A stretch of DNA of 64,000 nucleotides from an uncultured Rhodospirillaceae bacterium (GTDB taxonomy: Bacteria > Pseudomonadota > Alphaproteobacteria > Rhodospirillales > UBA2165): NCBI GenBank assembly GCA_964566055.1, contig CAZMHI010000022.1, positions 213-64,212 on the forward strand, in the 5' to 3' direction. The notes below the pieces were generated by a model. That model was given only the letters and a program-made list of their open reading frames with translations. It was not told where the DNA came from and ran no database searches. The position numbers and the translations under genes were made by a program. Positions 13,208-28,405 of this stretch are shown here, one piece after another (the stretch's first letter is position 1; every line of letters starts with the position of its first letter).

Positions 13208-14917
13208 ATGCCATCAAGTAAGCCGGGATCAGAAAAAAAGTATACAATGACGGAAGCACGAGACGTCATGGTGCCGATGCGCGATGGCGTTAATGTCGCC
13301 GTTGATGTCTTCAGGCCGGATGACGGCGGAAAATTTCCAGCCCTGCTGGCCATGTCGCCATACAGCAAGGGCATCCAGTCTATGCCGCTTGCCATTCAAC
13401 CTGACCGGTCGCCGATCCACCACACGCCGACCGAGGCTGGCAATCCGGTCTATTTTGCCGAGCATGGCTATGTCCATATCATCGCCGATGTGCGTGGCAT
13501 TGGCCAATCGGAAGGTGAATATCTCGGCTGGATGTCCGAACAAGAAGCCCAGGATGGACATGATTTGATTGAGTGGGCTGCCGAGCAACCCTGGTGTGAC
13601 GGCAATGTCGGCATGGTCGGCATATCCTATTTCGGCACCATTCAGCTTCCCGTTGCCGCTCAACAGCCGCCTCATCTTAAAGCCATCATGCCGTGGAATG
13701 CGCCGGCTGATTTTTACCGCGAGTCGACCCATCACGGCGGCATTCTGCAGAGTTTCTTTCATTACCTGTATATCCAGCGGATTTGCGCCGACAACTCTAC
13801 CTCGGTGACAGTAAAAGAGAATTCGCCCGAAGAGTTGAAGCGCATCGTCGCTGAGCTTAAAGCTGATCCCCAGATCGCGATCAATCCCGAAATATTCACC
13901 TATGTCGACAGTCCGGGTAAAGCGCCAAACTATTTTGATATTGTCGCCAATCCGCTGGATGGGCCCTATTATTGGGAGCGCTCGCCCCGCACCATGTATG
14001 ACAAGATAAAAATCCCGTCCTGGTGCCGCTCGGGCTGGTGGGCCTACGCCCATATGCATTTGGTTGGCGCTTTCCATAACTACAATGGCATTGATGCGCC
14101 GAAAAAACTTGAGATCGATGCGCCGGTGGTCGAGAAACGCCCGCTGCCGGATGAGTATTGCGAGGAAGTGCTGCGCTGGTACGATTACTGGCTCAAGGGC
14201 ATCGATACCGGCATCATGGATGAGCAGCCGATCCGCTTTTTCGTCAATGGTACCGAAGAATGGCGTTACGAGGATGAATGGCCGCTGGCCCGCACTGAAT
14301 GGTCAAAACTGTATCTCCGGCGCTGGGAGGAACTTTCCTGGGAGCCGGAAGAAGTGGCCGGTAAACCGGACGCTTTTGTTCAGCAACCGCCCGACGAAGT
14401 GTTGGAGTCCAATGTGCTCAAATATGAAACAAATGTCTTCAAAGAGGATATGGAGATCACCGGACCTGCTTCAATTACTCTTTATGCCTCGATTGACCAG
14501 GCAGATACCCATTGGATTGTCTCGCTGCGGGACGTCTACCCGGATGGCAGCCAGCAAGAATTAAGCAAAGGATTTTTGAAGGCCTCGCACCGGGCGGTCG
14601 ATGAAGAGAAATCTAAACCCTATGATATTTTCCACCCTCATCTTGAAGAAGTACCGGTTAAACCCGGCGAAATTTGCGAATATGCCATTTCAATGGCGCC
14701 GCTATCGAACATTTTTCAAGCGGGTCATAAAATTAGGATCGTTATTTCATCGCTCGACCATGCGCGCTCGCGCGACTATGAGTTAGCCCCGGAATCGCTT
14801 GGCCGAACCCATGCGCCGTGGCATATCAGCTGTGCGGATACGGTTCTGCACAAAATATACCATGATGAAGATCATCCCTCACATCTGCTATTGCCGGTTA
14901 TCCCGGCAAAGGCGTAG
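13208..14917 (+). CDS. CocE/NonD family hydrolase (peptidase S15 fold)
   Basis: VPMRDG start, DVRGIGQSEG, WCDGNVGMVGISYFG nucleophile elbow, C-terminal PepX-like domain; no signal peptide. Confidence 0.9.
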   Translation: MPSSKPGSEKKYTMTEARDVMVPMRDGVNVAVDVFRPDDGGKFPALLAMSPYSKGIQSMPLAIQPDRSPIHHTPTEAGNPVYFAEHGYVHIIADVRGIGQSEGEYLGWMSEQEAQDGHDLIEWAAEQPWCDGNVGMVGISYFGTIQLPVAAQQPPHLKAIMPWNAPADFYRESTHHGGILQSFFHYLYIQRICADNSTSVTVKENSPEELKRIVAELKADPQIAINPEIFTYVDSPGKAPNYFDIVANPLDGPYYWERSPRTMYDKIKIPSWCRSGWWAYAHMHLVGAFHNYNGIDAPKKLEIDAPVVEKRPLPDEYCEEVLRWYDYWLKGIDTGIMDEQPIRFFVNGTEEWRYEDEWPLARTEWSKLYLRRWEELSWEPEEVAGKPDAFVQQPPDEVLESNVLKYETNVFKEDMEITGPASITLYASIDQADTHWIVSLRDVYPDGSQQELSKGFLKASHRAVDEEKSKPYDIFHPHLEEVPVKPGEICEYAISMAPLSNIFQAGHKIRIVISSLDHARSRDYELAPESLGRTHAPWHISCADTVLHKIYHDEDHPSHLLLPVIPAKA

Positions 14918-14944
14918 TCTGACGTATAAAAGAAGGAAAAGAGA

Positions 14945-15634
14945 ATGACTGTAAAAATAGATTTGAAACTGCAACTCGCTGGGGAAGGCGAAATTGATTA
15001 TGTGCTCAACAATATCATCATCGGCGGCCTGACCGGTATTGATGTTGAGGCGATCGAAAAGCATCTGGACGAACTGGCAGAAATCGGTGTCACCCGGCCG
15101 AGCGCCATCCCGCTGTTTTTCCGCGCTGCGGCAGACATGGTCAGCACGGCTGATGATATTCAAGTGATCGGTACAGATACCAGCGGCGAGGCCGAGTTTG
15201 TCTTGCTTGGGACCGATGATGGTATGCTGGTCGGTGTCGGCTCAGATCATACCGACCGCAAAGTCGAAGCTTATTCGATCGCGGTGTCCAAGCAAATGTG
15301 CCCCAAAGTAATGGCGCCGGAAGTATGGAAATATGAAGACGTCAAAGATCACTTTGGACAATTGACCATACGTTCCTGGGCCACCGAAGGCGGCGAAAAG
15401 CGGCTTTATCAGGAATGCACGGCGGCTGATTTCCTGGCGCCGGATGTGGCGCTGCCGCAATGCTGCGATGGCGCGACGACATTGCCTGCCGGCACACTTT
15501 ATTACGGCGGCACCGGGGCGGCGATTGGCGGCGTCAAACCAGCCGACCGCTTTGATTATGAGATTGAAGACCCGGTTCTTGGGCGGAAAATAAGTCATGG
15601 CTATGACGTTACTTCGATACCGTTTGTTGTATAA
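14945..15634 (+). CDS. DUF2848 family protein
   Basis: TSGEAEF, VGVGSDHTDRKVEAYSIAVSKQMCPK. Confidence 0.85.
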   Translation: MTVKIDLKLQLAGEGEIDYVLNNIIIGGLTGIDVEAIEKHLDELAEIGVTRPSAIPLFFRAAADMVSTADDIQVIGTDTSGEAEFVLLGTDDGMLVGVGSDHTDRKVEAYSIAVSKQMCPKVMAPEVWKYEDVKDHFGQLTIRSWATEGGEKRLYQECTAADFLAPDVALPQCCDGATTLPAGTLYYGGTGAAIGGVKPADRFDYEIEDPVLGRKISHGYDVTSIPFVV

Positions 15635-15658
15635 TTTAAATACCAAAGGAGAAACGCA

Positions 15659-16045
15659 ATGGATAATACAAAAGTACTGGATGAATTTCACGAAGTCGAT
15701 TTGAGCACGGGCTGGAAAGTGCCTGATGGCTATCCCGAGGGCATTGAAGAACTCATTCTTGCTGGCGGGCTCAACGAAGAGGCCGGCACCGGCAGCCAAA
15801 CCCGCTTGCTGCGTATCAAGGCCGGCGTTTATACCACCGAACCTTTCGTTCATGATTATTGGGAAGAGGTTTATGTCATCTCCGGTGATCTCACAATGGG
15901 CAGCGATCAACAAGGTGAAGGCGGCGAAAGTTTCGGGCCAAACTCCTACGCCTGCCGGCCGCCGCATAACCCGCACGGGCCGTTCAAAACGGAAGGTGGC
16001 TGCATGTTGTATGAAATTCACTATTTCGATGAAGCCAAAGCTTAA
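15659..16045 (+). CDS. Cupin-domain protein (ChrR-like cupin)
   Basis: HDYWEEVYVISG and RPPHNPHGPF cupin motifs; AAGGAG RBS. Confidence 0.85.
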   Translation: MDNTKVLDEFHEVDLSTGWKVPDGYPEGIEELILAGGLNEEAGTGSQTRLLRIKAGVYTTEPFVHDYWEEVYVISGDLTMGSDQQGEGGESFGPNSYACRPPHNPHGPFKTEGGCMLYEIHYFDEAKA

Positions 16046-16076
16046 TTACCAATAACCACCAATTTTAGCATAAATC

Positions 16077-16115
16077 ACCCGCCCTTCGGCCTAATCGCTG
16101 AGGGGCGGGTTTTTT
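16077..16115 (+). terminator. Rho-independent terminator
   Basis: ACCCGCCCTTCGGC-ctaatc-GCTGAGGGGCGGGT stem (G-U pairs) followed by a T run; marks the left edge of the glycan island. Confidence 0.9.
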
Positions 16116-16293
16116 ATTTGAGGTGTTCTCAAAGTATAATTTGGGCTATTTAATTGGCGTGTAAGTAGCATTTTAACCACTCCGTGCTATAAGAGAATTT
16201 AAGATAAGCAAAATAGAGGGTTAGATAATTTTCGAGGACGTCAATTGGGTTAGCCTCTAAAATTACGAGTAGTTTTCCCATATCAGGAGAGAT

Positions 16294-17094
16294 GTGATGG
16301 CTAAAAAAAATGAGGAATTTGCACTTAAAGACCCGGTGACAGGTTCTGTTGTTACCATGGATTATGCCAGCTCGGACGAGCGGTCTGCCCGTGATGAGCT
16401 ACTGAATTCGTTTCGCGACTCTCCGATACCCGATCACTCTGTTTTAGCCAACCTAGGTCTGCATCTCACTTCAAAAACTTTTTCACGGCTGCTTTTTATG
16501 AACGAATTCTACAAAATGGGCCTGGACGTGATGGGGCAGGTTTTTGATTTTGGCACCCGATGGGGTCACAATATGGCAATCTTTATCGCTTGCCGGGGTA
16601 TGTATGAACCTTTCAACAGACACAGAAAAATTGTCGGCTTCGATACGTTTGGCGGATTTCCAACAGTGATTACAGAGGAAGACGGGCAGTCGGAAATGAT
16701 TGATGTTGGAAATATTTCCGTAACAGAGGACTACAAACCTTATCTCGATGAACATCTCAGTTTGTTAGAAAAAAATAATGCATTGCCGCATTTAAAGAAG
16801 TTTGAGCTTATGCAGGGTGATGCCTCGGAAACTATTAAGACCTATTTTGCTGATAATCCCCACGCCTTGGTATCACACGCTTTTTTTGATTTTGACCTCT
16901 ACAAGCCCACGAGAGATTGTTTGGAAGCAGTTTGGGAGCGAGCGCCCAAGGGGGCTGTTTTTGGGTTTGACGAAATAAACGATGAAGATTCTCCAGGTGA
17001 AACCCAGGCGCTTATGGAAATCGTAGGTGTATCCTCGATCAAACTCCAAAAATTTCCCTGGGTAAGTAGAGTTTCTTATTTTGTGAAAGACTAA
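16294..17094 (+). CDS. TylF/MycF-family sugar O-methyltransferase-like protein
   Basis: DFGTRWG SAM motif, GFDTFGGFP, FFDFDLY and FGFDE motifs. Confidence 0.8.
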   Translation: MMAKKNEEFALKDPVTGSVVTMDYASSDERSARDELLNSFRDSPIPDHSVLANLGLHLTSKTFSRLLFMNEFYKMGLDVMGQVFDFGTRWGHNMAIFIACRGMYEPFNRHRKIVGFDTFGGFPTVITEEDGQSEMIDVGNISVTEDYKPYLDEHLSLLEKNNALPHLKKFELMQGDASETIKTYFADNPHALVSHAFFDFDLYKPTRDCLEAVWERAPKGAVFGFDEINDEDSPGETQALMEIVGVSSIKLQKFPWVSRVSYFVKD

Positions 17095-17096
17095 GT

Positions 17097-17888
17097 ATGG
17101 CTGAAGGGTCCTTCAAGAGCGCCACCAATTCTGTTCGAAGAAAAATTCTGACCGCTATTACAAAATCCGGCAAAGGACATATCGGCGGCGCCCTCAGCTG
17201 CACGGACGTACTGTATTATTTATTTAGCGAGCAGATAGTTCATATATCACAGCCTGGTGAAAATACCGCCAGACCGTTGGTTATGAGCAAAGGTCATTCA
17301 ACTACTGCCTTACTGGCGGTCATAGACGAATTGCAAAACACCAGCTCACTTGAGCCTTACAACACCAACGGATCTTTGCGTGGCAACAATCCGTCTGAAC
17401 TCGTTGAAGGGGTTGAGTTTCATACCGGTTCACTGGGACACGGACCGGGTCTTGGAGCCGGCGTAGCACTGGCGAAAAGGTTGAGTGGCGACGACAATGC
17501 CGTCTGCATTCTAATGAGTGACGGAGAATTAAACGAAGGCTCCGTATGGGAAGCTTTTCAGTTCATTTCCAAGCACCAGCTGAATGTTTCGATATTGATC
17601 GATAACAACAATCAAATTTGTGAAGACTTTCTTGAGGATGTGTCTCCGCAGATGGATTTTAAAAGTATATTTGAGGGTCTTGGCTACGAATATTGTGAAC
17701 TGGATGGCCATTCCCCAAGCGACCTGCAAAACCTCCGGCCCTGGATTTTAGAGCGTCAGGCCCCGCGAGTTTGCTGCTTAAAAACGGTAAAGGGAAAAGG
17801 GGTTAGTTTTATGGAAAGCGTTCTCAAATGGCACCACAGCATTCCAGACGACGCCTTGTTCAAACAAGCAATGGAAGAACTGAAATAA
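17097..17888 (+). CDS. Transketolase-like enzyme, N-terminal (TPP-binding) subunit
   Basis: GHIGGALS, SKGH, TGSLGHG, SDGELNEGSVWE...DNN, WHH. Confidence 0.9.
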   Translation: MAEGSFKSATNSVRRKILTAITKSGKGHIGGALSCTDVLYYLFSEQIVHISQPGENTARPLVMSKGHSTTALLAVIDELQNTSSLEPYNTNGSLRGNNPSELVEGVEFHTGSLGHGPGLGAGVALAKRLSGDDNAVCILMSDGELNEGSVWEAFQFISKHQLNVSILIDNNNQICEDFLEDVSPQMDFKSIFEGLGYEYCELDGHSPSDLQNLRPWILERQAPRVCCLKTVKGKGVSFMESVLKWHHSIPDDALFKQAMEELK

Positions 17889-17889
17889 T

Positions 17890-18747
17890 ATGAACGATTT
17901 AAGGGATGCCTTTTTTGAAGCATTCATTGAGCTTTCCGTCTCAAATGAAAAGATTGTCCTGCTGAGCGTTGATATGGGTTCGCAGATCATCCAGAGCAAA
18001 GGTCATTTGCTGGGTGAACGCTACATTAATGTTGGTGTCAGTGAGCAAAATGCCGTTACCTTGGCTGCCGGACTCGCCTCACAAGGCTTTATTCCGTTTG
18101 TTTACGGCATCAGCTCTTTTTTGATAAACCGGCCTCGGGCCCAAATTCGTCATGACGCCATCATCGCCAACAACAATATTAATCTTATCGGGTCCGGGCC
18201 GGGATTGGCTTATGATTTAGACGGCCCCAGTCACCACTGCCTTGACGATATACAATTGATGCGCAGTTTGCCCGGCATAAAAATCTTCTCTCCGTTTGAC
18301 GCCGCGACCGCCGCATTAGCAGCTCAGGATAGTGCCAAATCTAATTGCACGACTTATTGCAGACTTGATAAAGGTTCCTATCCGCCACGATCCGAATCGT
18401 TAAATAATTTAGGGGATTTGTATATTAATCCTGGTGATCCTGAGAACTGGATAATTTCATCAGGTGTGGTTGCTCATAAAATAGACGAGGAAGACGGGCG
18501 CTCCGAAATGATCGTCTTTGCGGTGAAGGAAACAACTGGCAGTCAAATTGCCGATGAAATTCCAGAAAATGCGACCATCTCTATAAACGAGGAAGCTCAT
18601 ACTTCAGGCGGCATTCTCTCTCTGATCGCTGAAGCCAATTTGCTACATAATAAAAACTGGACATTTATTGGACCGAAATTTGAAAATAAATTTGTTCAAG
18701 AGAAATGGCCAAGAGACAAATTATTTGAGCTCTATCGCGAAAATTAG
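17890..18747 (+). CDS. Transketolase-like enzyme, pyrimidine-binding/C-terminal subunit
   Basis: NVGVSEQN, DGPSHH, YCRL; divergent, short C-terminal domain. Confidence 0.85.
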   Translation: MNDLRDAFFEAFIELSVSNEKIVLLSVDMGSQIIQSKGHLLGERYINVGVSEQNAVTLAAGLASQGFIPFVYGISSFLINRPRAQIRHDAIIANNNINLIGSGPGLAYDLDGPSHHCLDDIQLMRSLPGIKIFSPFDAATAALAAQDSAKSNCTTYCRLDKGSYPPRSESLNNLGDLYINPGDPENWIISSGVVAHKIDEEDGRSEMIVFAVKETTGSQIADEIPENATISINEEAHTSGGILSLIAEANLLHNKNWTFIGPKFENKFVQEKWPRDKLFELYREN

Positions 18748-18770
18748 ATCGCCTGTCTCTCCCTAATTAG

Positions 18771-19727
18771 TTACATTTGCTCCCGGTACCACTCGATGGT
18801 ACGGCTGAAGCCTTCGGCCAAACTGGTCGTGGTCTCGAAGCCCAGCTGTCCCCTGGCGCGTGAGCCATCCATCAATCGCACCGGTATGGTTGACGGTTTT
18901 TCAGGATCGAACCGGATATCGGCATCTTCAAATCCATCCACCTCCAAGGCGGTTTGCAAAATACCTTTGATAGATATGCCGGTGCCCGAGCAAATATTTA
19001 ATTCATCATAAAAATCGCACTTCTCGACCGCCAACATCAAGCCATCCAAAAAATCGGATATATAGATCAAATCGCGGACATCTTCGCCAGTACCCCATAC
19101 TTCCAGCGGATTATGCCGCTCCACCACCCGCCGTATCATTGCTGCCGTTACATGGGAAGTGGCAAAATCGAATTTATCATAAGGTCCGTAAATGTTAGAT
19201 GGACGGATGACCAAAGTGGACATGGGTGAGCTAATTTTAGTGGCATAAGTGCGGCAAAGAATTTCGGCATAGCGTTTCATCCAGGCCACCGGATAATAAA
19301 CATCCACCGGATCCGCATCGAACATTTCCTCTTCCGCTACTGGGCGGTCTCCGGTCGGCGGGTAGGCGGCACCGCTGCTGATAAAGACGAACTTTTTGAC
19401 ATCCACTTCATAGGCGGCTTCCAGAAGATGAGCGTTCATGACCACGTTTGGTGTCACATGTACTAAGGGTGTCGTCGCCATAACGGCCGCTCCTGAAGTA
19501 TTGGCGGCACAATGAAAAACATAATCAACACCGTCGACAGCGTTCTGGCAGGCGTTGAGATCACGCAGATCGGCGTTTAGGGTTTCTATATTTTCAGTCG
19601 ATATTTGTAGGGGTTTCTGGTGTATGGTCGCCCTCACCTGGGCACCTTCTTCGAGCAGACGGAGTAGGAGGTTCGTGGCGATAAATCCAGCGCCACCGGT
19701 AACCAAAACTTTTGCACCTTTCAACAT
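18771..19727 (-). CDS. Fcl-like NAD(P)-dependent epimerase/reductase (extended SDR), atypical active site
   Basis: TGGAGFIA, RPSNIYGPYD, SHV; VAWMK in place of YxxxK. Confidence 0.85.
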   Translation of the reverse strand: MLKGAKVLVTGGAGFIATNLLLRLLEEGAQVRATIHQKPLQISTENIETLNADLRDLNACQNAVDGVDYVFHCAANTSGAAVMATTPLVHVTPNVVMNAHLLEAAYEVDVKKFVFISSGAAYPPTGDRPVAEEEMFDADPVDVYYPVAWMKRYAEILCRTYATKISSPMSTLVIRPSNIYGPYDKFDFATSHVTAAMIRRVVERHNPLEVWGTGEDVRDLIYISDFLDGLMLAVEKCDFYDELNICSGTGISIKGILQTALEVDGFEDADIRFDPEKPSTIPVRLMDGSRARGQLGFETTTSLAEGFSRTIEWYREQM

Positions 19728-19728
19728 A

Positions 19729-20721
19729 TTATTCTTCGTGGAAGTAATTTTTACGCCCGCTCCCTTCGCTTTGGTTTTCCAGATACCATTGGTACGTGGC
19801 CTCTAACCCTTGGCGCAGGCTGGTCGACGGCTGGTAGCCAATCCATTCCCGCGCCCGCGATATGTCCATGACACGGCGGGGAAATCCCGCTGGCTTTGAG
19901 GTGTCAAATTCATGGTTAAAATTGATAAATTCATGTAGCGTTTCGACGAGCTCGCTGATCGCATAGCCTTTGCCGCTGCCCAAATTTACGAAACTGCCGC
20001 GAGTGCCGTGATGAAGTGCTAAAATCGTTCCAGCCGCAACATCTGTTGAAAAAGCAAAATCACGAACCGCACTGCCATCGCCCCAAATCAACACCGGGTC
20101 TTCGCCGCTAACGATGCGGTGGATTAAAGTCGGAATGACCATGGCGTTTTCCGGGTCAAAATTATCGCCCGGACCATAGACGTTACAGGGCCGCACAATG
20201 GCAAAATTTATCATACCATATTGCTGACGATAGGCATCAATCTGTAATTCAGCCATGCGCTTCGCCCAGCCGGGAAATTCATCCATCGGCAGGGAATCCC
20301 TGACATCGTCCCTTTCATTGAAATACTCGGCGGCGGCGTAGGCCCCAATTGAGCTGGTATAGACAGCTTTCTTGACGCCATTGATGCGGCAGGCTTCGAG
20401 AAGATTTGTGTTCATCATTAGTAGCGGCACTAGAAAACTCGCAGGTTGAGATCGTGTCACTTCGACCGAGCCTTTAATTCCAGCAATATGAAAAACAAAA
20501 TCAACGTTTTCTGTGAGATTCCGGCACACCGAAAAATCCGTCAAATCAGCAATTACCTGGTTGGCCCGTGGATCGGTTGCCATCTCATCAAGCGATACGC
20601 TGGTGACGTTGGCGCCGAAATCACATAACAATGCCACGACCTGTCTGCCGATCATACCGGTGCCACCGGTAACGATAACTTTTGAGCCGGAGAATTCTGC
20701 CGCTATTGTGGGATCAATCAT
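19729..20721 (-). CDS. Fcl-like NAD(P)-dependent epimerase/reductase (extended SDR), atypical active site
   Basis: TGGTGMIG, RPCNVYGPGDNF; PGWAK in place of YxxxK. Confidence 0.85.
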   Translation of the reverse strand: MIDPTIAAEFSGSKVIVTGGTGMIGRQVVALLCDFGANVTSVSLDEMATDPRANQVIADLTDFSVCRNLTENVDFVFHIAGIKGSVEVTRSQPASFLVPLLMMNTNLLEACRINGVKKAVYTSSIGAYAAAEYFNERDDVRDSLPMDEFPGWAKRMAELQIDAYRQQYGMINFAIVRPCNVYGPGDNFDPENAMVIPTLIHRIVSGEDPVLIWGDGSAVRDFAFSTDVAAGTILALHHGTRGSFVNLGSGKGYAISELVETLHEFINFNHEFDTSKPAGFPRRVMDISRAREWIGYQPSTSLRQGLEATYQWYLENQSEGSGRKNYFHEE

Positions 20722-20728
20722 GTACTCA

Positions 20729-21262
20729 CTAAGCCACGTTTAGACGATCACCAAGCTTTTGGCGTGCCAGAGCAAGAATGCCGATATCTGACAACAAAAC
20801 CGGTTCTCCCGAATTGGCCATCGCCAAATAATCTTCGATACTACATTCGACCAAATCGATAAATTCGCTCTCACTCGGTGTTGCAACTTTTTTTGAGTTC
20901 AACGCAGCAAAGCCGATAATTGAATATGAATGGCGATCTACACTGAGACCAAAGTTGCCAAGGGGAATTAGTTTTCCTGGCTCATAGCCGGTTTCTTCAA
21001 GTAATTCGCGCCGCATTGCCTGTTCTGGTTTTTCATTTTCTTCCATAAAACCGGCTGGGAATTCGATGGTTTTGCAGCCCCGCGCGGGACGAAACTGCTT
21101 AACCAATACGATCTTTTCATCTTCGGTCAACAGCAGCGCGACCACGCCATCATTGCTGTCGATGCGATAAAAAGGTTGCGAACCGATCCCCCAAGCCGGT
21201 TCAGAAGACACTTCGGTGATGCTGAACCAATCGGTGTGAAAAACGGTTTTATCTTCGCTCAT
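20729..21262 (-). CDS. Nudix hydrolase (NDP-sugar pyrophosphatase-like)
   Basis: Nudix box GFMEENEKPEQAMRRELLEETGY; QFRP and EFPAG. Confidence 0.9.
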   Translation of the reverse strand: MSEDKTVFHTDWFSITEVSSEPAWGIGSQPFYRIDSNDGVVALLLTEDEKIVLVKQFRPARGCKTIEFPAGFMEENEKPEQAMRRELLEETGYEPGKLIPLGNFGLSVDRHSYSIIGFAALNSKKVATPSESEFIDLVECSIEDYLAMANSGEPVLLSDIGILALARQKLGDRLNVA

Positions 21263-22230
21263 TAAGCTCTCTGTTGTAAACGTTGACGATGATAGTTCAG
21301 CAAATCTTCGAGCGTTTGTTCAAGCGGGTATTCGGGCTGCCATCCGGACTGCTCGCGAAATTTTGTATTCTCGGGAATCTGCAATGTTACATCCGCCGGA
21401 CGTAACAGTTCAGGATCGACCGCATGTTCTATTGGCACCTTGGCATACGATTTTAGGATGTCGAGCATCTCACCAATCGTCAGTGTCCGATTGCCGCCAA
21501 TATTGTAAACTTCACCCGGTGTACAATGTTCTAATAACGCCCAATAAGCGCGGACTGCATCACGGACATCAGCATAAGTGCGGATACTTTCCAGATTACC
21601 TACCTTAATCGGATTTTCGACAAGTCCGAGCTCGACTTCGGCAATTTGTTTGGCAAAGGCACTTTCGGCGAAGAAATCTCCCCGCCTGGGGCCGGAATGG
21701 GTAAACATCCGCGTCCGGATAATCTTCATGCCATAGGAAATGTGGTACTGTTTACCCAACATATCCTGTCCGACTTTAGAAACCGCATAGGGGCTGGCAG
21801 GATTTAGCGGCGTATTTTCCGTTATCGGAATCATGCTTTCATCAACTTGGCCGTAGACTTCAGCTGAACTGCATATATGGATCATTGGATCGATACCGAC
21901 ATTCCGAATGGCATCGAGCAAATTTACTGTGCCAATAACATTTACCGTAAAGGTATCGCCGGGACTCTCGTAACTGATTGGCACAAAACTTTGCGCTGCA
22001 AGATGAAAAATGCGATCAGGTCGAATATGGTCAATGACTTCAATCATTGAGGAGAGGTCTCTAAGCTCACCCTGAACCAGTTCTATATTGTCAATTCTTC
22101 CGCGAATGTTATCTAATGGGCTGCGCCAGCGAACCAATCCATAGACATCAACATTCGGATGGGTATCAATGACGTAATCGGCCATGTGGCTGCCCACCAT
22201 GCCGGTAATACCAGTAATTAGAAGTTTCAT
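21262..22230 (-). CDS. gmd: GDP-mannose 4,6-dehydratase
   Basis: GITGMVG, HLAAQSFV, SSAEVYG, PYAVSK, GNLESIRTYADVRDAVRAYW, LLRPADV. Confidence 0.8.
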   Translation of the reverse strand: MKLLITGITGMVGSHMADYVIDTHPNVDVYGLVRWRSPLDNIRGRIDNIELVQGELRDLSSMIEVIDHIRPDRIFHLAAQSFVPISYESPGDTFTVNVIGTVNLLDAIRNVGIDPMIHICSSAEVYGQVDESMIPITENTPLNPASPYAVSKVGQDMLGKQYHISYGMKIIRTRMFTHSGPRRGDFFAESAFAKQIAEVELGLVENPIKVGNLESIRTYADVRDAVRAYWALLEHCTPGEVYNIGGNRTLTIGEMLDILKSYAKVPIEHAVDPELLRPADVTLQIPENTKFREQSGWQPEYPLEQTLEDLLNYHRQRLQQRA

Positions 22231-22246: not shown

Positions 22247-23314
22247 CTAAAAAGGTCCACGGAAATGTTTATAAGTGTCGGTCATCGGTTTTTTCTCCGG
22301 CAGATCAATGCCATGGAGCTCTGCGCCGGTAACAGTTTTACAAATTGCGTCACAAAGGTCATGTAAATCCGGATAATATAAATCCTCTAATGTTTTGGCG
22401 GTCGGGCACGGTGCTGGCGCCATCCCCAGAGTAACAACCGGCGCCTGTAAAGCCGAGGGCGCCGTTTCACATACGAGCCGGCAAATTTCTGCTGCCACAC
22501 CATAAGCTTGCCAGCTGGTATCGGCAATGAGCAATCTGCCAGTTCTGAGAACACTATCAATAATCATTTCAGAATCCGGGCTGGTCGCGCAATTTAGATC
22601 GATCACATCACATTTGATGCCGGCTGTAGCCAGATGATCGGCTGCCCGTTCGGCTTCCAGAACCATTATGGATGTCGCCACCACGGTGATATCATCTCCT
22701 CGCCGCAAATGTCGTGAGCCAAGAGGATTTTCGGCTTTCGAAATTTGCTCCCGGTCGACCTTAAAATCCAGCTCATACAGCAGCCGGTGTTCGAAGCTGA
22801 TAACCGGGCCAGCGAATTCGTTGGTAGCATATGGATAGGCACCCAAAATAGCAGATGAATCCGAGGGCATAATAACCGTCAATCCGGGAATATGGGCAAA
22901 CAGAGATTGCAAGCTTTGGGTATGCTGGGCACCCTGGCCCCAACTTCGCCCAACAACCGCCCTGATGAGCATTGGCACTTTAAACAGACCGCCAAACATA
23001 TAACGATATTTAGCCACCAAATTAATAATCTGATTGGTGGCCAGCAGCATAAAATCGGCGCGAATATGGGTCATGATCGGATACATACCGTTCAAAGCTG
23101 CGCCGACAGAAATGCCGGTAACGGCTTCTTCGGCGAGCGGCGTATCCAAAACGCGTCCGCCGCCATACTTTTCAGCCAGTCCGAGGGTCGTGCCGAATAT
23201 ACCTTTATGGTCATCGACGCCTTGGCCAATGATGAAGGCATCATCATTGCCGGCCATGGCGCCATCCATGCACTCAAACAAAGCTTCCCGGTATTTAACA
23301 ATTTCTGTAGTCAT
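22247..23314 (-). CDS. Pyruvate-dehydrogenase E1 beta-like subunit (glycan-cluster type)
   Basis: GQGV, DTPLAE, GQGAQHTQS; ATG 23314 lies 2 nt after the alpha stop. Confidence 0.9.
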   Translation of the reverse strand: MTTEIVKYREALFECMDGAMAGNDDAFIIGQGVDDHKGIFGTTLGLAEKYGGGRVLDTPLAEEAVTGISVGAALNGMYPIMTHIRADFMLLATNQIINLVAKYRYMFGGLFKVPMLIRAVVGRSWGQGAQHTQSLQSLFAHIPGLTVIMPSDSSAILGAYPYATNEFAGPVISFEHRLLYELDFKVDREQISKAENPLGSRHLRRGDDITVVATSIMVLEAERAADHLATAGIKCDVIDLNCATSPDSEMIIDSVLRTGRLLIADTSWQAYGVAAEICRLVCETAPSALQAPVVTLGMAPAPCPTAKTLEDLYYPDLHDLCDAICKTVTGAELHGIDLPEKKPMTDTYKHFRGPF

Positions 23315-23316
23315 TA

Positions 23317-24246
23317 CTAAACAACATCCGTCAATAAAATGGCTTGCCCCGGCCATTCGCTTTTTTCAGCAAAGTCGACTGCCGCATCGATTGCTTGGCT
23401 GATTTCAGCTTCCAACAATGCTACGGTTTCGGTATCGCGAATAAGCGGATCATTAATACTCCATTTCTCAAATTCCTCCCGGCTGCGATAACCGGCTTCA
23501 AAATCATCGCCCGGCCCTACATGTTCTCGGGCCCGCATGGTTTTAATCTCAAGATATTGAGGCCCGCCGCCACCCCGGACCTTCGCCGTCAGCTCAGACA
23601 TTGCTTCATATATCTTCATAAAATCCAAGCCGTCTTCAAGGCGCTGGGTCGGAATCTTATAGGTGTCCAATAATTCCAGCCGATTAAACTTCTGCCGTGA
23701 CTCAATTGGCGAATGTGCAGCGAACCCGTTATCTTCACAAACCAGGATTAACGGCAAGTTGTGGAGTGAGGCAAAGTTGAGACTTTCATGGGCAACACCT
23801 TCTTCAAGCGCGCCATCACCAAAAAACGCCACATTGACCTGATCGCTTTGCCGGTGTTTGGCGGCAAAAGCTGCACCGACCGCATGAGGGATTGAACTGG
23901 CGACCACTGCGGAGGAACCCATCATACCAACCTCCGGTGCGGCCAGATGCATTGAGCCGGCTTTGCCTTCGGAAACACCGGTAACTTTACCGTAAAGTTC
24001 CGCGAACATGAGGGCCAGATCGCCTCCCTTGGCAATATAAACGGCGTGGCTCCGATAAGTGCCAAAAACCCAATCTTCTTGGCGCAAGGCGTGGCAGACA
24101 CCAACCGCGACGGCCTCCTGGCCAATAGACAAATGAACAGGGCTTTGAATTTTATCGAAAGGATAGAGCTCAATTATGCGTTCTTCGACCCGGCGAATAG
24201 TTAAAGCGTCATGAAAAAGGCGAGTATACAGATCCTGCGAGGGCAT
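23317..24246 (-). CDS. Pyruvate-dehydrogenase E1 alpha-like subunit (glycan-cluster type)
   Basis: GQEA, YRSH, GSMH, FFGDGALEEG...EDN TPP motif. Confidence 0.9.
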   Translation of the reverse strand: MPSQDLYTRLFHDALTIRRVEERIIELYPFDKIQSPVHLSIGQEAVAVGVCHALRQEDWVFGTYRSHAVYIAKGGDLALMFAELYGKVTGVSEGKAGSMHLAAPEVGMMGSSAVVASSIPHAVGAAFAAKHRQSDQVNVAFFGDGALEEGVAHESLNFASLHNLPLILVCEDNGFAAHSPIESRQKFNRLELLDTYKIPTQRLEDGLDFMKIYEAMSELTAKVRGGGGPQYLEIKTMRAREHVGPGDDFEAGYRSREEFEKWSINDPLIRDTETVALLEAEISQAIDAAVDFAEKSEWPGQAILLTDVV

Positions 24247-25220
24247 TAATGTACTTTCCCTGTGTCAGCTGAATTATTGAGAAACCACTTATAGGTTTTT
24301 TGCAAACCTTCTTCGATTGTCATATTTGCTGTCCAGCCAATTTTCTCCATCCGCGTTCGATCCAAAAGTTTCCGTGGCGCGCCATCCGGTTTGGATCGAT
24401 CAAATTTCAACTGTCCGTCAAAACCGACAACTTTGCAAATGGCTTCGGCCAGCCCCCGAACCGATAATTCCTGGCCCGATCCGATGTTGATGGGAATGGC
24501 ATCGGAGTAGTTCTTCAACAAAAAAACGACCGCATCAGCCAGATCGTCAACATACATAAATTCCCGCTTCACTTTGCCGGAACCCCACACTTCAAGCGCC
24601 TTAGCATTTTCTACTTTAGCTTTATGAGCTTTGCCCAAAAGAGCAGGGATAACGTGACTGGTTTCGGGATCGTAGTCGTCACCCGGACCGTACAGATTGT
24701 TCGGTTGGGCGGCAATAAAGTCACTACCGTATTGTTCCCGGTAGGCTTGGCATAGTTTAATGGCAGCGATTTTAGCCACAGCATGCCACTCATTGGTGGG
24801 TTCCAGAGGGCCGGTCAAAAGTGCCTCTTCGACCATCGGCTGCGCAGATTCTCTGGGATAAATGCAAGCCGAGCCGATAAATAATAGTTTCTCAACATTA
24901 TGGAGGTGAGCCGCCTGAATGATGTTGCTGGCGATCATTAAATTGTTGTAGAGGAAATCAACCGGGTAATTAATGTTGGACATAATGCCGCCGACAGTCG
25001 CTGCAGCAACAACAATCGCTTGAGGTTTGGCATCGCCGACCCACTGCCCAACGTCAAATTGATTCCTAAGGTCCAAATCTGACCGTGCGATAGTTTGGAC
25101 TTCACACCTTTCAGGTGACAGCCGACGCACAACTGCAGAACCAACCATACCGTTGTGGCCAGCAACCCACACACGTTTGCCCAGCAACGAATAAAGAGGA
25201 GATTTATTCGAATCGTTCAT
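24246..25220 (-). CDS. fcl: GDP-L-fucose synthase-like epimerase with catalytic Tyr replaced by His
   Basis: AGHNGMVGSA, AATVGGI, GSACIYP, LEPTNEWHAVAK, PNNLYGP, SHVIPAL, REFMYVDD; ATG 25220 chosen. Confidence 0.9.
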   Translation of the reverse strand: MNDSNKSPLYSLLGKRVWVAGHNGMVGSAVVRRLSPERCEVQTIARSDLDLRNQFDVGQWVGDAKPQAIVVAAATVGGIMSNINYPVDFLYNNLMIASNIIQAAHLHNVEKLLFIGSACIYPRESAQPMVEEALLTGPLEPTNEWHAVAKIAAIKLCQAYREQYGSDFIAAQPNNLYGPGDDYDPETSHVIPALLGKAHKAKVENAKALEVWGSGKVKREFMYVDDLADAVVFLLKNYSDAIPINIGSGQELSVRGLAEAICKVVGFDGQLKFDRSKPDGAPRKLLDRTRMEKIGWTANMTIEEGLQKTYKWFLNNSADTGKVH

Positions 25221-25301
25221 TACCGTGACTATAAAGTAAAATTGAAAACAAAAGTTTAATTTCACGCTGCTACAGCGATGTTCGAAATTTAAAAAATCTG
25301 C

Positions 25302-26288
25302 TCATTGTTCCATCGATTGGGCCAAAAGTTTTTGCTGTTGCCGCAATAATTGCTGAGTTTTCATATTGATAATTTGCGGTGTCATTTTCTCTAAATGAGC
25401 CTCGGCCTGGCGGAGCGCCTTTAGGTAGGTTTCATCTTTAATCTCAGATTCGGCGGAAAAAGCCAATTGATGAACGTGCAGCTGGTCCGGCGGCAATTCA
25501 TCTTCGGCTTCCTGCTGAAATTCCTCGATTTTGTCGTTCAAAAATTCGAAAGCCTGACTTTGCGCCAATTTGTTATCGCTGTGTAAATAGCCAATTAGTT
25601 GTTTTGCGGTTTCTACCCGCTCAGCCAGTAAAAGGTGAAAAAACTGGGTCCAGAATGGAAGGTCCCACAACCGGTGTGTTGTTCCTTTTTTTCCATCCAT
25701 AGGGAATAACTTGATCGGAACACAGTATTTTCGATCCACCATCTCGGCGATCTGCTGTAGCCATTTATCGCCAAACCAATAGGGAAAATGGGGCACAATA
25801 AAATGCCCAACAAGGTTTACCCATTGAGCGGTTGTGACCATCGTGGTGATGCCGCCTTCTGGCATAATTGGATCAGGCAAATATCCTACGGCGACGCGGT
25901 CGGTTGGCAAATTGTGGAACCATTCAAGCATTACAACGTCCCAACCGGGGGTCATCAATTCATAGTCATCGGGAAAGCCAAAATAGAGGCCAGCATTTGA
26001 ACTGTTCCGCCATAGTTCAGTAAATGCATCGCCATGGGTAATGGGTCTGGAACTGACATGCCAATGGACCTTAAAACCGATCGACTTATCCCAACCGGAG
26101 GCGATCAAATCATGGGTTTTACTGTCATCGTCATCCACATAAATCCAAAGATCAATGTGATCTTTATTAACCGCTTGGTTATCGAGAGAACTGATCGCGC
26201 GTTTCACCTTTTCAGGCCGCCCGCGGGTCAGCATAAGGATGTTAATATGATCTGGATCGTCAATGGGTATAGGTTCAATATCAGTCAT
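25302..26288 (-). CDS. Putative GT-A fold (GT2-like) glycosyltransferase
   Basis: ILMLTRGRP, YVDDDD and FPDDY acidic motifs. Confidence 0.6.
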   Translation of the reverse strand: MTDIEPIPIDDPDHINILMLTRGRPEKVKRAISSLDNQAVNKDHIDLWIYVDDDDSKTHDLIASGWDKSIGFKVHWHVSSRPITHGDAFTELWRNSSNAGLYFGFPDDYELMTPGWDVVMLEWFHNLPTDRVAVGYLPDPIMPEGGITTMVTTAQWVNLVGHFIVPHFPYWFGDKWLQQIAEMVDRKYCVPIKLFPMDGKKGTTHRLWDLPFWTQFFHLLLAERVETAKQLIGYLHSDNKLAQSQAFEFLNDKIEEFQQEAEDELPPDQLHVHQLAFSAESEIKDETYLKALRQAEAHLEKMTPQIINMKTQQLLRQQQKLLAQSMEQ

Positions 26289-26344: not shown

Positions 26345-28405
26345 TTACCACACGCCTACCCCTTCTGATTTATCATCATGTGCATCATGCAGGTTTCCAT
26401 CTGCACTTTCAAATGGCGCTTGATCACTGGCATACCATTGGGCCGGCCAAAGTATGTCATCGTTTTTTCTACCATATACAACACGTTCCAAGGCGAAGAG
26501 GTTCAGATCACCTTCGTAGTCGATTGGTTCAATGTATAAAATCTGACTTAGATCACGAATTGCCACCGGTTCTACAGTGACCACATGTTCCATAAATTCA
26601 GGGACATTGTAGCGAAATTGCCATTGTTGAATGGGAGGTGCCTCGGCGCTAGGCATACGCAACCATTGATATCGAACGACTTCCGAAAGCAAATCCAGAT
26701 CTATGGTAACGCTTCGGGCATTTAAAAAAGCGCAAAGCAATTCTTCCATTTCTTGGAAGAAGCGGTCTTTTTCTGCAGCAAAACTAAGGAAAGAGCAATC
26801 TTCAGTGAACCAGTAAAGTTCGCCGTAACCTTCATATTCCACGCCCCAACCGGCGCCGTTGTAAATATCCTCCAGGCGCATTTCATAATAATCCATTTCT
26901 TCCGAGACCAGGGAGGAAGGCATGAGGGCTGGCGCCTCATCAACCAGGAACCGGACAAAATCGGTAAAAGGAATATCCAGATGCCGGCGTAAGAAAAACA
27001 AGATGTAGGAACTTGCGCCGAGGCTATGGAGAGCCATCATCAACCAGGCAAATTTCCAGGTACGCCGCCATTGATCATGGGGCATGGAGGCAGTTTCGAC
27101 AACGATTGGTACGTTTTCCATCACTTTATCGGAACTAATAGTGGCACAATGGATGGGTTTGATATCTGATTTTCGCAGTTTTATGCCAAATTGAGCCTGA
27201 TAGTCCGGGTCACCCATATCGGTATTGGGAAAGGCTTCAAGCCAATACAAATACAGCGATCTCAGTTCCGAATTCAGCACGTCTTCCACCCCGGCAATAA
27301 AACTATCGTAAGTTTCTCCTGGTAAGCCTACGATCATTTCAGTCCAGGTGGGAATTCCAGATTGGGCGAATTTGCTCTGCAGTGAGCGATAGGTATCCAT
27401 TTTGATGTTGCCGCGCTTAATATTGGCAAGAACTGTCTTACTATTACTTTGGCGCGAAAGATTTACACCTTTGTCGAGGCCGTGATCGAATAGTAATTTC
27501 CCAGTATCAAATACATTGGTATCGGTGTTTTTGCCATAACAGACTCTAAAACGTTGTGGATAGCCATAGCGTTTTTTAGCATCGGCAAAAGCCTGCGCCA
27601 GTTCAATATCCCGCCGGTGCATACCAAAATTTGAATCGGCGCCAAAAACGTAGCCAATTTTATTCTGACCAATCCACTCGATTTCCTGCTTCGACCGTTC
27701 CAAGCTGTGATATTTGAAACGCCGACCGATGTCACCTTTACCCCAGTAGCAAAAGGTGCATTGAAACGGACAGCCACGATTTGATTCTAAGATGGCTTGA
27801 AAAGAAAACTGCGGATTTTCGCTGATTAAATTATCAAACAATCCTCCGACATAGGGCGAGGGCATATTGTCCAGGTCTCGCTCGAAAGGATATTCTCCTT
27901 CGTTGACCATGATGCTTTCACCATCACGCCAGCTTACCTGTGGAATGTCTGCAAATTCCCGGGAGGAAAGATTGCGAACCAAAATGTCGCCGAAAGGCAA
28001 TTCGCCCTCGCCTCTTACACAGACATCAATAAACGGATGTTCTATCATAAACTCAGTCGGATCATGCGGTACACTACCACCGCCAAAAATGATCAGACAA
28101 TTCGGATAGCGTGCCTTAATTTCACGGGCGACGTGAAGCGATAAATTGGCGCTCCAGGAATAAAGAGAAAATGCTGCCACATCGGGTTCATCAATTTGGG
28201 CTAATATATTTTCCGGTAAATCTGCTTTGAACAGGTAGGGCGCAAACTCGTAACCTTCACGAATGGCTGGAATTTCGCGTGCATAGGCATGAAGGCAGCC
28301 TGACACCAACGGCAGATAAGCGCCGTTGTCATGTACTAGATTGTATTCGTTCAGGTAGACGCGTGCTCTGGACCGAGATTCTAATTCGGACGACTTAATA
28401 TCCAT
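26345..28405 (-). CDS. Cobalamin-binding radical SAM protein
   Basis: N-terminal B12-binding-type domain (FSLYSW...IIFGGGSV), RGCPFQCTFCYWG CxxxCxxC, ADSNFG, EMIVGLPGET. Confidence 0.9.
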   Translation of the reverse strand: MDIKSSELESRSRARVYLNEYNLVHDNGAYLPLVSGCLHAYAREIPAIREGYEFAPYLFKADLPENILAQIDEPDVAAFSLYSWSANLSLHVAREIKARYPNCLIIFGGGSVPHDPTEFMIEHPFIDVCVRGEGELPFGDILVRNLSSREFADIPQVSWRDGESIMVNEGEYPFERDLDNMPSPYVGGLFDNLISENPQFSFQAILESNRGCPFQCTFCYWGKGDIGRRFKYHSLERSKQEIEWIGQNKIGYVFGADSNFGMHRRDIELAQAFADAKKRYGYPQRFRVCYGKNTDTNVFDTGKLLFDHGLDKGVNLSRQSNSKTVLANIKRGNIKMDTYRSLQSKFAQSGIPTWTEMIVGLPGETYDSFIAGVEDVLNSELRSLYLYWLEAFPNTDMGDPDYQAQFGIKLRKSDIKPIHCATISSDKVMENVPIVVETASMPHDQWRRTWKFAWLMMALHSLGASSYILFFLRRHLDIPFTDFVRFLVDEAPALMPSSLVSEEMDYYEMRLEDIYNGAGWGVEYEGYGELYWFTEDCSFLSFAAEKDRFFQEMEELLCAFLNARSVTIDLDLLSEVVRYQWLRMPSAEAPPIQQWQFRYNVPEFMEHVVTVEPVAIRDLSQILYIEPIDYEGDLNLFALERVVYGRKNDDILWPAQWYASDQAPFESADGNLHDAHDDKSEGVGVW

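Follow-up and report, generated by a model that had tools for sequence, protein, structure and literature searches.

We analysed a stretch of 64,000 nucleotides from an uncultured Rhodospirillaceae bacterium (GenBank assembly GCA_964566055.1, contig CAZMHI010000022.1, positions 213 to 64,212; hereafter the window), which harbours a sugar gene cassette with an unusual paralogue of GDP-L-fucose synthase. In this paralogue, termed Fcl-H, the catalytic Tyr is replaced by His and the residues for epimerisation are retained. From sequence comparisons we consider it probable (about 0.65) that Fcl-H arose by duplication of a GDP-L-fucose synthase and now serves as an epimerase in its own right, which inverts C3 and C5 of a GDP-4-keto-6-deoxy sugar without reducing it. 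The first-pass annotation of the window had put forward an Fcl that lacks the reducing Tyr, keeps the epimerisation dyad and hands a 4-keto sugar to thiamine enzymes; the apparent displacement of a cupin epimerase in the cassette and the presence of a separate gmd and Tyr-type fcl in the same genome lend support to this proposal. Fcl-H is a variant of a known enzyme family within an uncharacterised but widespread cassette.

Fcl-H, a GDP-L-fucose synthase paralogue with His at the position of the catalytic Tyr

GDP-fucose synthase carries out two epimerisations and one reduction in a single active site. Because all steps take place in this one active site, the epimerised 4-keto intermediate is normally out of reach of other enzymes; to our knowledge, it is reached in GDP-sugar pathways only via separate cupin epimerases. 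In the synthase, also known as GMER or GFS, a Ser/Tyr/Lys triad serves the C4 reduction, and a Cys/His dyad the C3/C5 epimerisation (PMC7949155, PMC12362431). GFS epimerises its substrate without NADPH and then releases the doubly epimerised keto sugar (PMC12362431). When the hydroxyl group of the Tyr is removed, as in the human variant Y143F, hydride transfer becomes rate-limiting and about 3% residual activity is left, with little effect on epimerisation (PMC12362431). An fcl duplicate in which the Tyr has been replaced would therefore be expected to deliver an epimerised GDP-4-keto-6-deoxy sugar, not GDP-fucose.

Fcl-H is encoded on the minus strand by an open reading frame (ORF) that contains LEPTNEWHAVAK (Table 1). 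The ATG start codon at position 25220 agrees with the N-termini of the homologues; an upstream GTG at 25265 would yield a protein of 339 amino acids (aa), the 15 extra residues of which are absent in the homologues. Only short-chain dehydrogenase/reductase (SDR) families were matched in a Pfam search, with 196.2 bits against PF01370 (extended SDR, Epimerase; positions 2-240 of 240, above the gathering score) and no match to PF00908, the RmlC-like cupin family. Against the NCBIfam equivalog model NF047922 (GDPFucSynFcl) the protein scored 468.7 bits (positions 2-306 of 308), which is below the cut-off of 500. Taken alone, this shortfall is weak evidence; the ordinary Tyr-type Fcl of the same genome likewise stays just below the cut-off with 498.4 bits. 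The best solved relatives are GDP-L-fucose synthases, namely PDB 7LL6 (380 bits) and E. coli GMER (324 bits). Fcl-H has the same fold and length as these synthases (E. coli 1E6U/1BWS, 7LL6, human 4BKP), with about 55-60% identity to the bacterial members, and shares with them the Ser, Lys, Cys and His of the active site, the Gly-rich NADP loop and the affiliation with the GDP-sugar family. In contrast to the synthases, the Fcl-H clade has His for Tyr, is coupled to a thiamine E1 pair instead of gmd, and occurs alongside an ordinary Fcl.

The residues were assigned by alignment to E. coli GMER (PDB 1BWS/1E6U). The SDR triad is incomplete, as Ser117 and Lys150 are present and His146 takes the place of the Tyr, both in the window and in 12 of 12 clusters of the clade described below. 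The dyad for C3/C5 epimerisation is complete, with Cys119 and His189 invariant. Translation and the GMER alignment thus bear out two statements of the first-pass annotation, that Tyr is replaced by His (codon CAT at 24783-24785) and that the epimerase pair is intact, the Cys of GSACIYP and the His of SHV falling on C109 and H179 of GMER. At the sequence level, the NADP(H)-binding Rossmann motif VWVAGHNGMVGS and the RSDLDL motif are conserved in the Fcl-H clade.

A search over 5.8 billion proteins retrieved 120 relatives of Fcl-H. All of the 12 nearest clusters at 90% identity (P0002-P0013; 87 member sequences from ENA, JGI, NCBI and Logan; 66-100% identity) have the His, within the clade motif NE[WP]H-A-x-[AS]-K, and the more distant homologues in the tree (at most 65% identity) have Tyr in 108 of 108 cases. 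The His clade is monophyletic in the maximum-likelihood tree (SH-aLRT 100), with a stem of 0.32 substitutions per site. Seven positions cleanly separate it from the Tyr group (I115, H146, A153, D182, M222, R275 and R288); beside the Tyr-to-His exchange, the clade-specific changes include G153A, N182D, L222M, R275 and R288, and the remaining active site and the nucleotide-binding loop are conserved. Both His codons are in use, CAT in the window and in the loci L015 and L017, CAC in L001 and L004, and the flanking codons show many synonymous differences. The clade-wide occurrence of the His, the two codons, the synonymous differences and the monophyly together indicate that His146 is held by selection. 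Whether homologues keep the His had been raised in the first-pass annotation; it is found in every cluster of the clade, and the copies in syntenic gene clusters carry His, not Tyr.

A lone His was also seen in an ordinary Fcl of an unrelated metagenome-assembled genome (MAG; L036:2279-3214), which stands between gmd and a fucosyltransferase-like gene and combines Tyr-to-His at the catalytic site with His-to-Tyr elsewhere. The 11 other members that were checked of its 17-member cluster (90% identity) all have Tyr, and neither of the two changes. We rejected this sequence as counter-evidence, since it is a private variant whose near-identical relatives have Tyr. It probably reflects either an artefact of assembly or consensus or an allele that is rare, and illustrates noise, in contrast to the His clade. 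When the whole family was surveyed with 150 representatives at 50% identity, 139 had Tyr and four had Phe with an intact dyad. One of these four is the Fcl homologue P0302 (L141:5837-6808; GCA_964534385.1, contig CAZHOA010000008.1), which reads EPTNEPFAIAK at this site and is a single sequence whose nearest relative is 52% identical. Its gene lies directly after those for a GHMP kinase, a nucleotidyltransferase, a DegT aminotransferase and an SDR. As a lead only, P0302 might follow the same logic, the DegT aminotransferase being a partner that needs a 4-ketone.

Fcl-H is an extra copy of GDP-fucose synthase, present beside an ordinary gmd and Tyr-fcl pair. The source genome (4.48 Mb, 110 contigs) has an ordinary Fcl with the motif NEWYAIAK on another contig, where it adjoins a true gmd (606.8 bits; cut-off 415); Fcl-H itself is not paired with gmd. 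Of the 401 genomes of the order that were searched, four have Fcl-H (at least 67% identity); all four belong to the genus of the window, and each also has the Tyr-type Fcl. The stop codon of fcl-H overlaps the start codon of the E1alpha gene (TAATG), which amounts to translational coupling. The order Fcl-H, E1alpha, E1beta, dehydratase, Nudix hydrolase, SDR_P, SDR_V, where the last two are Fcl-like SDRs with Pro and Val, respectively, at the Tyr position, is common to all three His subclades: it occurs in the window, in L001 (74% identity) and in L004/L016 (68%), and in part in L015 and L017.

A cupin epimerase in place of Fcl-H in related cassettes

The cassette also turned up outside the Fcl-H genomes, in other families and classes, when 401 genomes of the class were searched with E1alpha and 401 of the phylum with the Pro-type SDR. 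In nine other genomes, the regions inspected around the matches lack Fcl-H. An SDR_P-anchored scan of metagenomes gave at least 525 confirmed relatives; the best 80 were examined, with 45 loci of at least 8 kb. The core that recurs in these 45 loci is made up of SDR_P, a cupin, SDR_V, a GHMP kinase and the dehydratase, plus E1 and/or a transketolase pair. The cupin is present in 40 of the 45, between or beside SDR_P and SDR_V, and in five of the nine genome loci (L137, L138, L143, L144, L146). Fcl-H occurs in none of the 45 metagenome loci, one of which has an ordinary Tyr-type Fcl at the contig edge.

The cupin belongs to PF00908 and has the RmlC fold. Among solved structures, the C. jejuni GDP-4-keto-heptose 3,5- and 3-epimerases (7ANG, 7M14, 8DB5) match it best; these enzymes epimerise and cannot reduce. 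In the Fcl-H cassettes SDR_P is directly adjacent to SDR_V, with no cupin between them, and the HddA-like GHMP kinase is missing as well. The cassette cupin is absent genome-wide from the genome of the window and from two others with Fcl-H (G300, G182), and all that was found in the fourth (G330) is an RmlC-like gene with 27% identity, located on a different contig. Since the sister cassettes have the cupin and since cupin and Fcl-H are mutually exclusive, Fcl-H appears to fill the slot of a non-reducing epimerase. On this pattern of gene content, the exchange is most likely a non-orthologous displacement.

The wider form of the cassette (L149-L227, L137, L138, L143, L144, L146) comprises a DdahA-like dehydratase, a DdahB-like cupin, SDR_P, SDR_V and the HddA-like GHMP kinase. 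It also has E1alpha/beta and/or the split transketolase pair and often a Nudix hydrolase, an aldo-keto reductase, a 266-aa methyltransferase-like protein and a B12 radical SAM enzyme. Overall, it looks like a 6-deoxyheptose-type pathway joined to thiamine-dependent C-C chemistry.

Proposed pathway, known analogues and alternative explanations

In the pathway that we propose, the cassette 4,6-dehydratase would make a GDP-4-keto-6-deoxy sugar from GDP-mannose or, possibly, from GDP-D-glycero-D-manno-heptose. Fcl-H would then invert C3 and C5 via enolates, with Cys119 as the base and His189 as the acid, and its Ser117, Lys150 and His146 would polarise the C4 carbonyl. With no Tyr to donate a proton, hydride transfer from NADPH would be suppressed and the epimerised 4-keto sugar released. 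The translationally coupled E1alpha/E1beta pair would take this keto sugar as the carbonyl acceptor and add an acyl or hydroxyalkyl unit, presumably at C4. Further processing of the sugar would fall to the pair of unusual SDRs, to the radical SAM methylase and to the transketolase pair. What the sequences show is the pattern of residues and how it is conserved, the paralogy, the synteny and the fact that Fcl-H and the cupin epimerase exclude each other; that reduction is lost, which sugar is made, in which order the steps run and where the branch is placed are inferred.

The dehydratase is the likely source of the 4-keto sugar. Its best PDB match, 7US5, is the C. jejuni GDP-D-glycero-D-manno-heptose 4,6-dehydratase, with which it has the motifs ICSS(A/S)EVYG and THSGPRR in common; against the gmd model it reaches only 165 bits (cut-off 415). 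An assignment as an Rmd-type reductase was rejected because the motifs are common with 7US5 and not with Rmd (2PK3). As the dehydratase is closest to a GDP-heptose 4,6-dehydratase, the product of Fcl-H may differ from GDP-4-keto-6-deoxy-L-galactose. The sugar could be a hexose or a heptose: a heptose is suggested by the relatives of the dehydratase and of the cupin, and there is a hint of a hexose in that the HddA-like kinase is missing from the His cassettes, so that the replacement of the cupin may have been accompanied by a switch from a heptose to a hexose substrate. For the downstream step, we would put E1-catalysed branching at C4 at slightly under even odds; the E1 pair may also add its unit elsewhere.

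A precedent for a division of labour comes from the C. jejuni heptose pathways, where GDP-4-keto-6-deoxy chemistry is split between epimerase-only cupins (DdahB/MlghB) and reductase-only, Fcl-like proteins (DdahC/MlghC). In DdahC and MlghC the triad is still in place and the Cys/His dyad has gone, and these proteins carry out reduction only (PMC7949155). Fcl-H does not fit this pattern but is its mirror image: the Fcl-like protein of C. jejuni lost the dyad and reduces, whereas Fcl-H lost the triad Tyr, kept the dyad and replaces the cupin. The C. jejuni heptose enzymes are also the closest solved relatives of the cassette dehydratase and of the cupin in the related cassettes. RmlC-type cupins achieve what is proposed for Fcl-H, the C3/C5 inversion of a nucleoside-diphosphate-4-keto-6-deoxy sugar without redox chemistry, and occupy the same slot of the cassette. 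They are analogues and not homologues, however, with a cupin instead of a Rossmann SDR fold and a His/Tyr instead of a Cys/His pair. A further parallel is offered by the redox-inactive ketoreductase (KR0) domains of modular polyketide synthases, which epimerise only and generally lose NADPH binding. Here, too, an SDR-fold reductase has lost reduction and kept an epimerase role, albeit with other substrates and catalytic residues, and Fcl-H, judging by its motifs, apparently keeps NADPH binding.

Precedents for the thiamine-dependent step are known from other nucleotide sugars. YerE and ErwE are thiamine enzymes that add an acyl branch at the 4-keto group of CDP-4-keto-3,6-dideoxyglucose (PMC9306805), and the E1-like AviB1/B2 and Pau11/12 add acyl branches to 4-keto antibiotic sugars in avilamycin and paulomycin (PMC4753412). 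As proposed for the cassette, a 4-keto sugar is the acceptor for a thiamine-bound acyl anion in YerE, ErwE and MMAR_2332 (CDP-sugars), AviB1/AviB2 and Pau11/Pau12. AviB1/B2 resemble the cassette pair by architecture, that is, E1alpha/beta without E2/E3; among the cassette ORFs checked there is no E2 or E3 gene. In paulomycin biosynthesis, the aldo-keto reductase Pau7 reduces the C4-acetyl branch of paulomycose (PMC4753412), and aldo-keto reductases likewise lie beside several cassettes. Such genes recur at the cassette edge (L001:8818-9900, L137:15079-16053, L139:4209-5354 and many metagenome loci); none adjoins the cassette in the window itself.

In the literature that we searched, coverage of which is incomplete, we found no GDP-linked case of thiamine-dependent acyl branching, no clade of Tyr-less GDP-fucose synthases with an intact dyad, and no stand-alone SDR-type GDP-4-keto-6-deoxymannose 3,5-epimerase. 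We tentatively suggest, still at less than an even chance, that Fcl-H is the first natural epimerase-only GDP-fucose synthase, a Tyr-to-His fcl duplicate that replaces a cupin, and that the cassette, widespread with its at least 525 metagenome matches, makes the first GDP-linked acyl-branched sugars by means of E1-type and transketolase-type thiamine enzymes. If Fcl-H does uncouple epimerisation from reduction, it would illustrate that one active-site change is enough to create a new branch point in nucleotide-sugar metabolism, and it would be a natural probe of the role of the Tyr for enzymologists as well as a biocatalyst for GDP-4-keto-6-deoxy-L-sugars. Fcl-H also draws attention to a large unstudied family of cassettes with a GDP-sugar dehydratase, an epimerase, thiamine enzymes and atypical SDRs, which probably make branched surface sugars in many environmental bacteria.

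Several points weigh against a purely epimerising Fcl-H. Elsewhere among dehydrogenases, for instance in those for lactate and malate, His is competent as a general acid. In the human enzyme, about 3% of the activity survives the Y143F exchange, and the only product is GDP-fucose (PMC12362431). Given that His can act as an acid and that the Tyr-less human enzyme is not fully inactive, some reduction may persist. Throughout the His clade, neither the Gly-rich nucleotide-binding loop nor the Arg of RSDLDL varies; NADP(H), needless for mere epimerisation, is thus probably still bound. The His is strictly retained, with no drift to Phe, Asn or the like, which suggests that it has a positive role. 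An AlphaFold2 model built from a 20-sequence alignment has a mean predicted local distance difference test score of 79, but the score falls below 50 over residues 118-142, the active-site loop, where the model is therefore unreliable and lends no support from geometry. With regard to the cassettes, five of the 45 metagenome loci as well as L139 and L140, two genome cassettes read over 20 kb, have neither cupin nor Fcl-H, so that the epimerase step is optional. Finally, L147 has an ordinary Tyr-type Fcl divergently beside a 48%-identical E1 pair. The generalisation that all E1-linked Fcl proteins lack the Tyr was therefore rejected, and proximity to E1 alone does not demand the loss of the Tyr.

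Three other explanations are less likely. Fcl-H might still be a bifunctional epimerase/reductase with His146 as the proton donor, directly or via water, so that its product would be GDP-L-fucose or a 6-deoxy-L-heptose for the same glycan and the thiamine enzymes would act on another compound. The full conservation of the NADP-binding motifs, Ser117 and Lys150, the strict retention of the His, the formation of GDP-fucose as the sole product by Y143F at about 3% activity (PMC12362431) and an NCBIfam score close to that of the ordinary copy (468.7 versus 498.4 bits) are consistent with this. We nevertheless regard it as unlikely: the genome already owns gmd and a Tyr-type fcl, reduction would destroy the only ketone made in the cassette, and the same slot is held in about 90% of the related cassettes by a cupin that is unable to reduce. 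Moreover, with Tyr in 108 of 108 aligned homologues of the Tyr group and in 139 of 150 family representatives, a neutral swap of Tyr for His is not tolerated elsewhere. Less likely still is a new chemistry keyed on His146, be it the reduction of the exocyclic carbonyl of an added acyl branch after epimerisation, in the manner of YerF or Pau7, or a keto-isomerase activity. Strict His conservation with a retained cofactor site would suit such an activity, the shorter side chain would presumably leave room for a C4 branch, and both other SDRs of the cassette are without the canonical Tyr, so that the window has no obvious branch reductase. Yet the cupin cassettes manage without any Fcl-H, several cassettes own an aldo-keto reductase that could reduce the branch as Pau7 does (PMC4753412), and an enzyme that did nothing but reduce the branch would have no use for the Cys/His dyad, which is invariant.

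By far the least probable explanation is that the His is a sequencing or assembly artefact, or that Fcl-H has lost its function and is decaying. One transition from TAT to CAT would suffice, as the first-pass annotation had cautioned, and the unrelated MAG described above shows just such a private variant. The caution was not borne out: the His is present in 87 sequences, which come from independent samples and fall into 12 clusters, both codons occur and there are many synonymous differences nearby, and since the His recurs in all clusters with CAT and CAC both used, a single-base error is excluded without recourse to reads. Decay is countered by the intact ORF, by the small number of clade-distinguishing positions (only seven) and by the conservation of the other catalytic positions.

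Gene content of the cassette in the window and further loci

Table 1. Features of the Fcl-H cassette (positions refer to the window).
Feature	Position	Strand	Remarks
B12-binding radical SAM enzyme (KedN5-like C-methyltransferase family)	26345..28405	minus	operon head
328-aa protein, no Pfam or NCBIfam match	25302..26288	minus	directly upstream of Fcl-H
Fcl-H, GDP-L-fucose-synthase paralogue, catalytic Tyr replaced by His	24246..25220	minus	324 aa from ATG 25220
Ser117-Ala118-Cys119	24864..24872	minus	triad Ser and epimerisation base Cys, GMER S107/C109; invariant in alignment
His146 codon CAT	24783..24785	minus	position of E. coli GMER Tyr136; plus-strand bases ATG
Lys150, triad Lys	24771..24773	minus	GMER K140
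His189, epimerisation acid	24654..24656	minus	GMER H179
E1alpha-type thiamine-diphosphate subunit	23317..24246	minus	Pfam E1_dh 173.7 bits; GDG...EDN cofactor motif
E1beta-type subunit (Transket_pyr + Transketolase_C)	22247..23356	minus	Pfam
GDP-sugar 4,6-dehydratase, WcbK/DdahA type	21262..22230	minus	best PDB match 7US5, 266 bits
Nudix hydrolase	20729..21262	minus	Pfam NUDIX; conserved in L001 and L004
SDR_P, Fcl-like SDR, Pro at Tyr position (FPGWAKR)	19729..20721	minus	most conserved cassette marker
SDR_V, Fcl-like SDR, Val at Tyr position (YYPVAWMKR)	18771..19727	minus	
Divergent sub-module: 266-aa methyltransferase-like protein and split transketolase pair (N, pyrimidine-binding halves)	16294..18747	plus	

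SDR_P and SDR_V both lack the Tyr of the YxxxK motif; in its place they have invariant G-W-A-K-R and W-M-K-R-Y sequences, respectively, which are conserved across classes. Orthologues of both were found in L138, L143, L144, L146 and 80 metagenome loci. The trio of the 266-aa methyltransferase-like protein and the split transketolase pair recurs in L144, L146 and many metagenome loci.

The 328-aa protein could not be identified by Pfam, NCBIfam or named homologues. An 88%-identical copy adjoins Fcl-H in L015. Its family is small, with 29 related clusters that are mostly metagenomic and all but one unnamed, and weak relatives are encoded in two cupin-type cassettes (L162, L171).

In the locus with the Tyr-type Fcl mentioned above (L147:5028-8045; genome G1002), the fcl gene forms an operon with genes for a PhyH-like dioxygenase, a classical SDR and an MBOAT acyltransferase, and this operon is divergent from the distant E1alpha/beta pair and an SDR_P-like gene. 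It may represent a differently built locus that links fucose to thiamine chemistry.

The genome of the window contains a second sugar cluster on contig C56 (approximately 14400-21950), with a split transketolase pair, two SDRs and a 2-hydroxyacid dehydrogenase-like protein. This cluster also encodes a DegT-type aminotransferase, an HddC-like nucleotidyltransferase and an HddA-like GHMP kinase, the last of which shares 46% identity with the kinase that the cassettes in other genomes carry.

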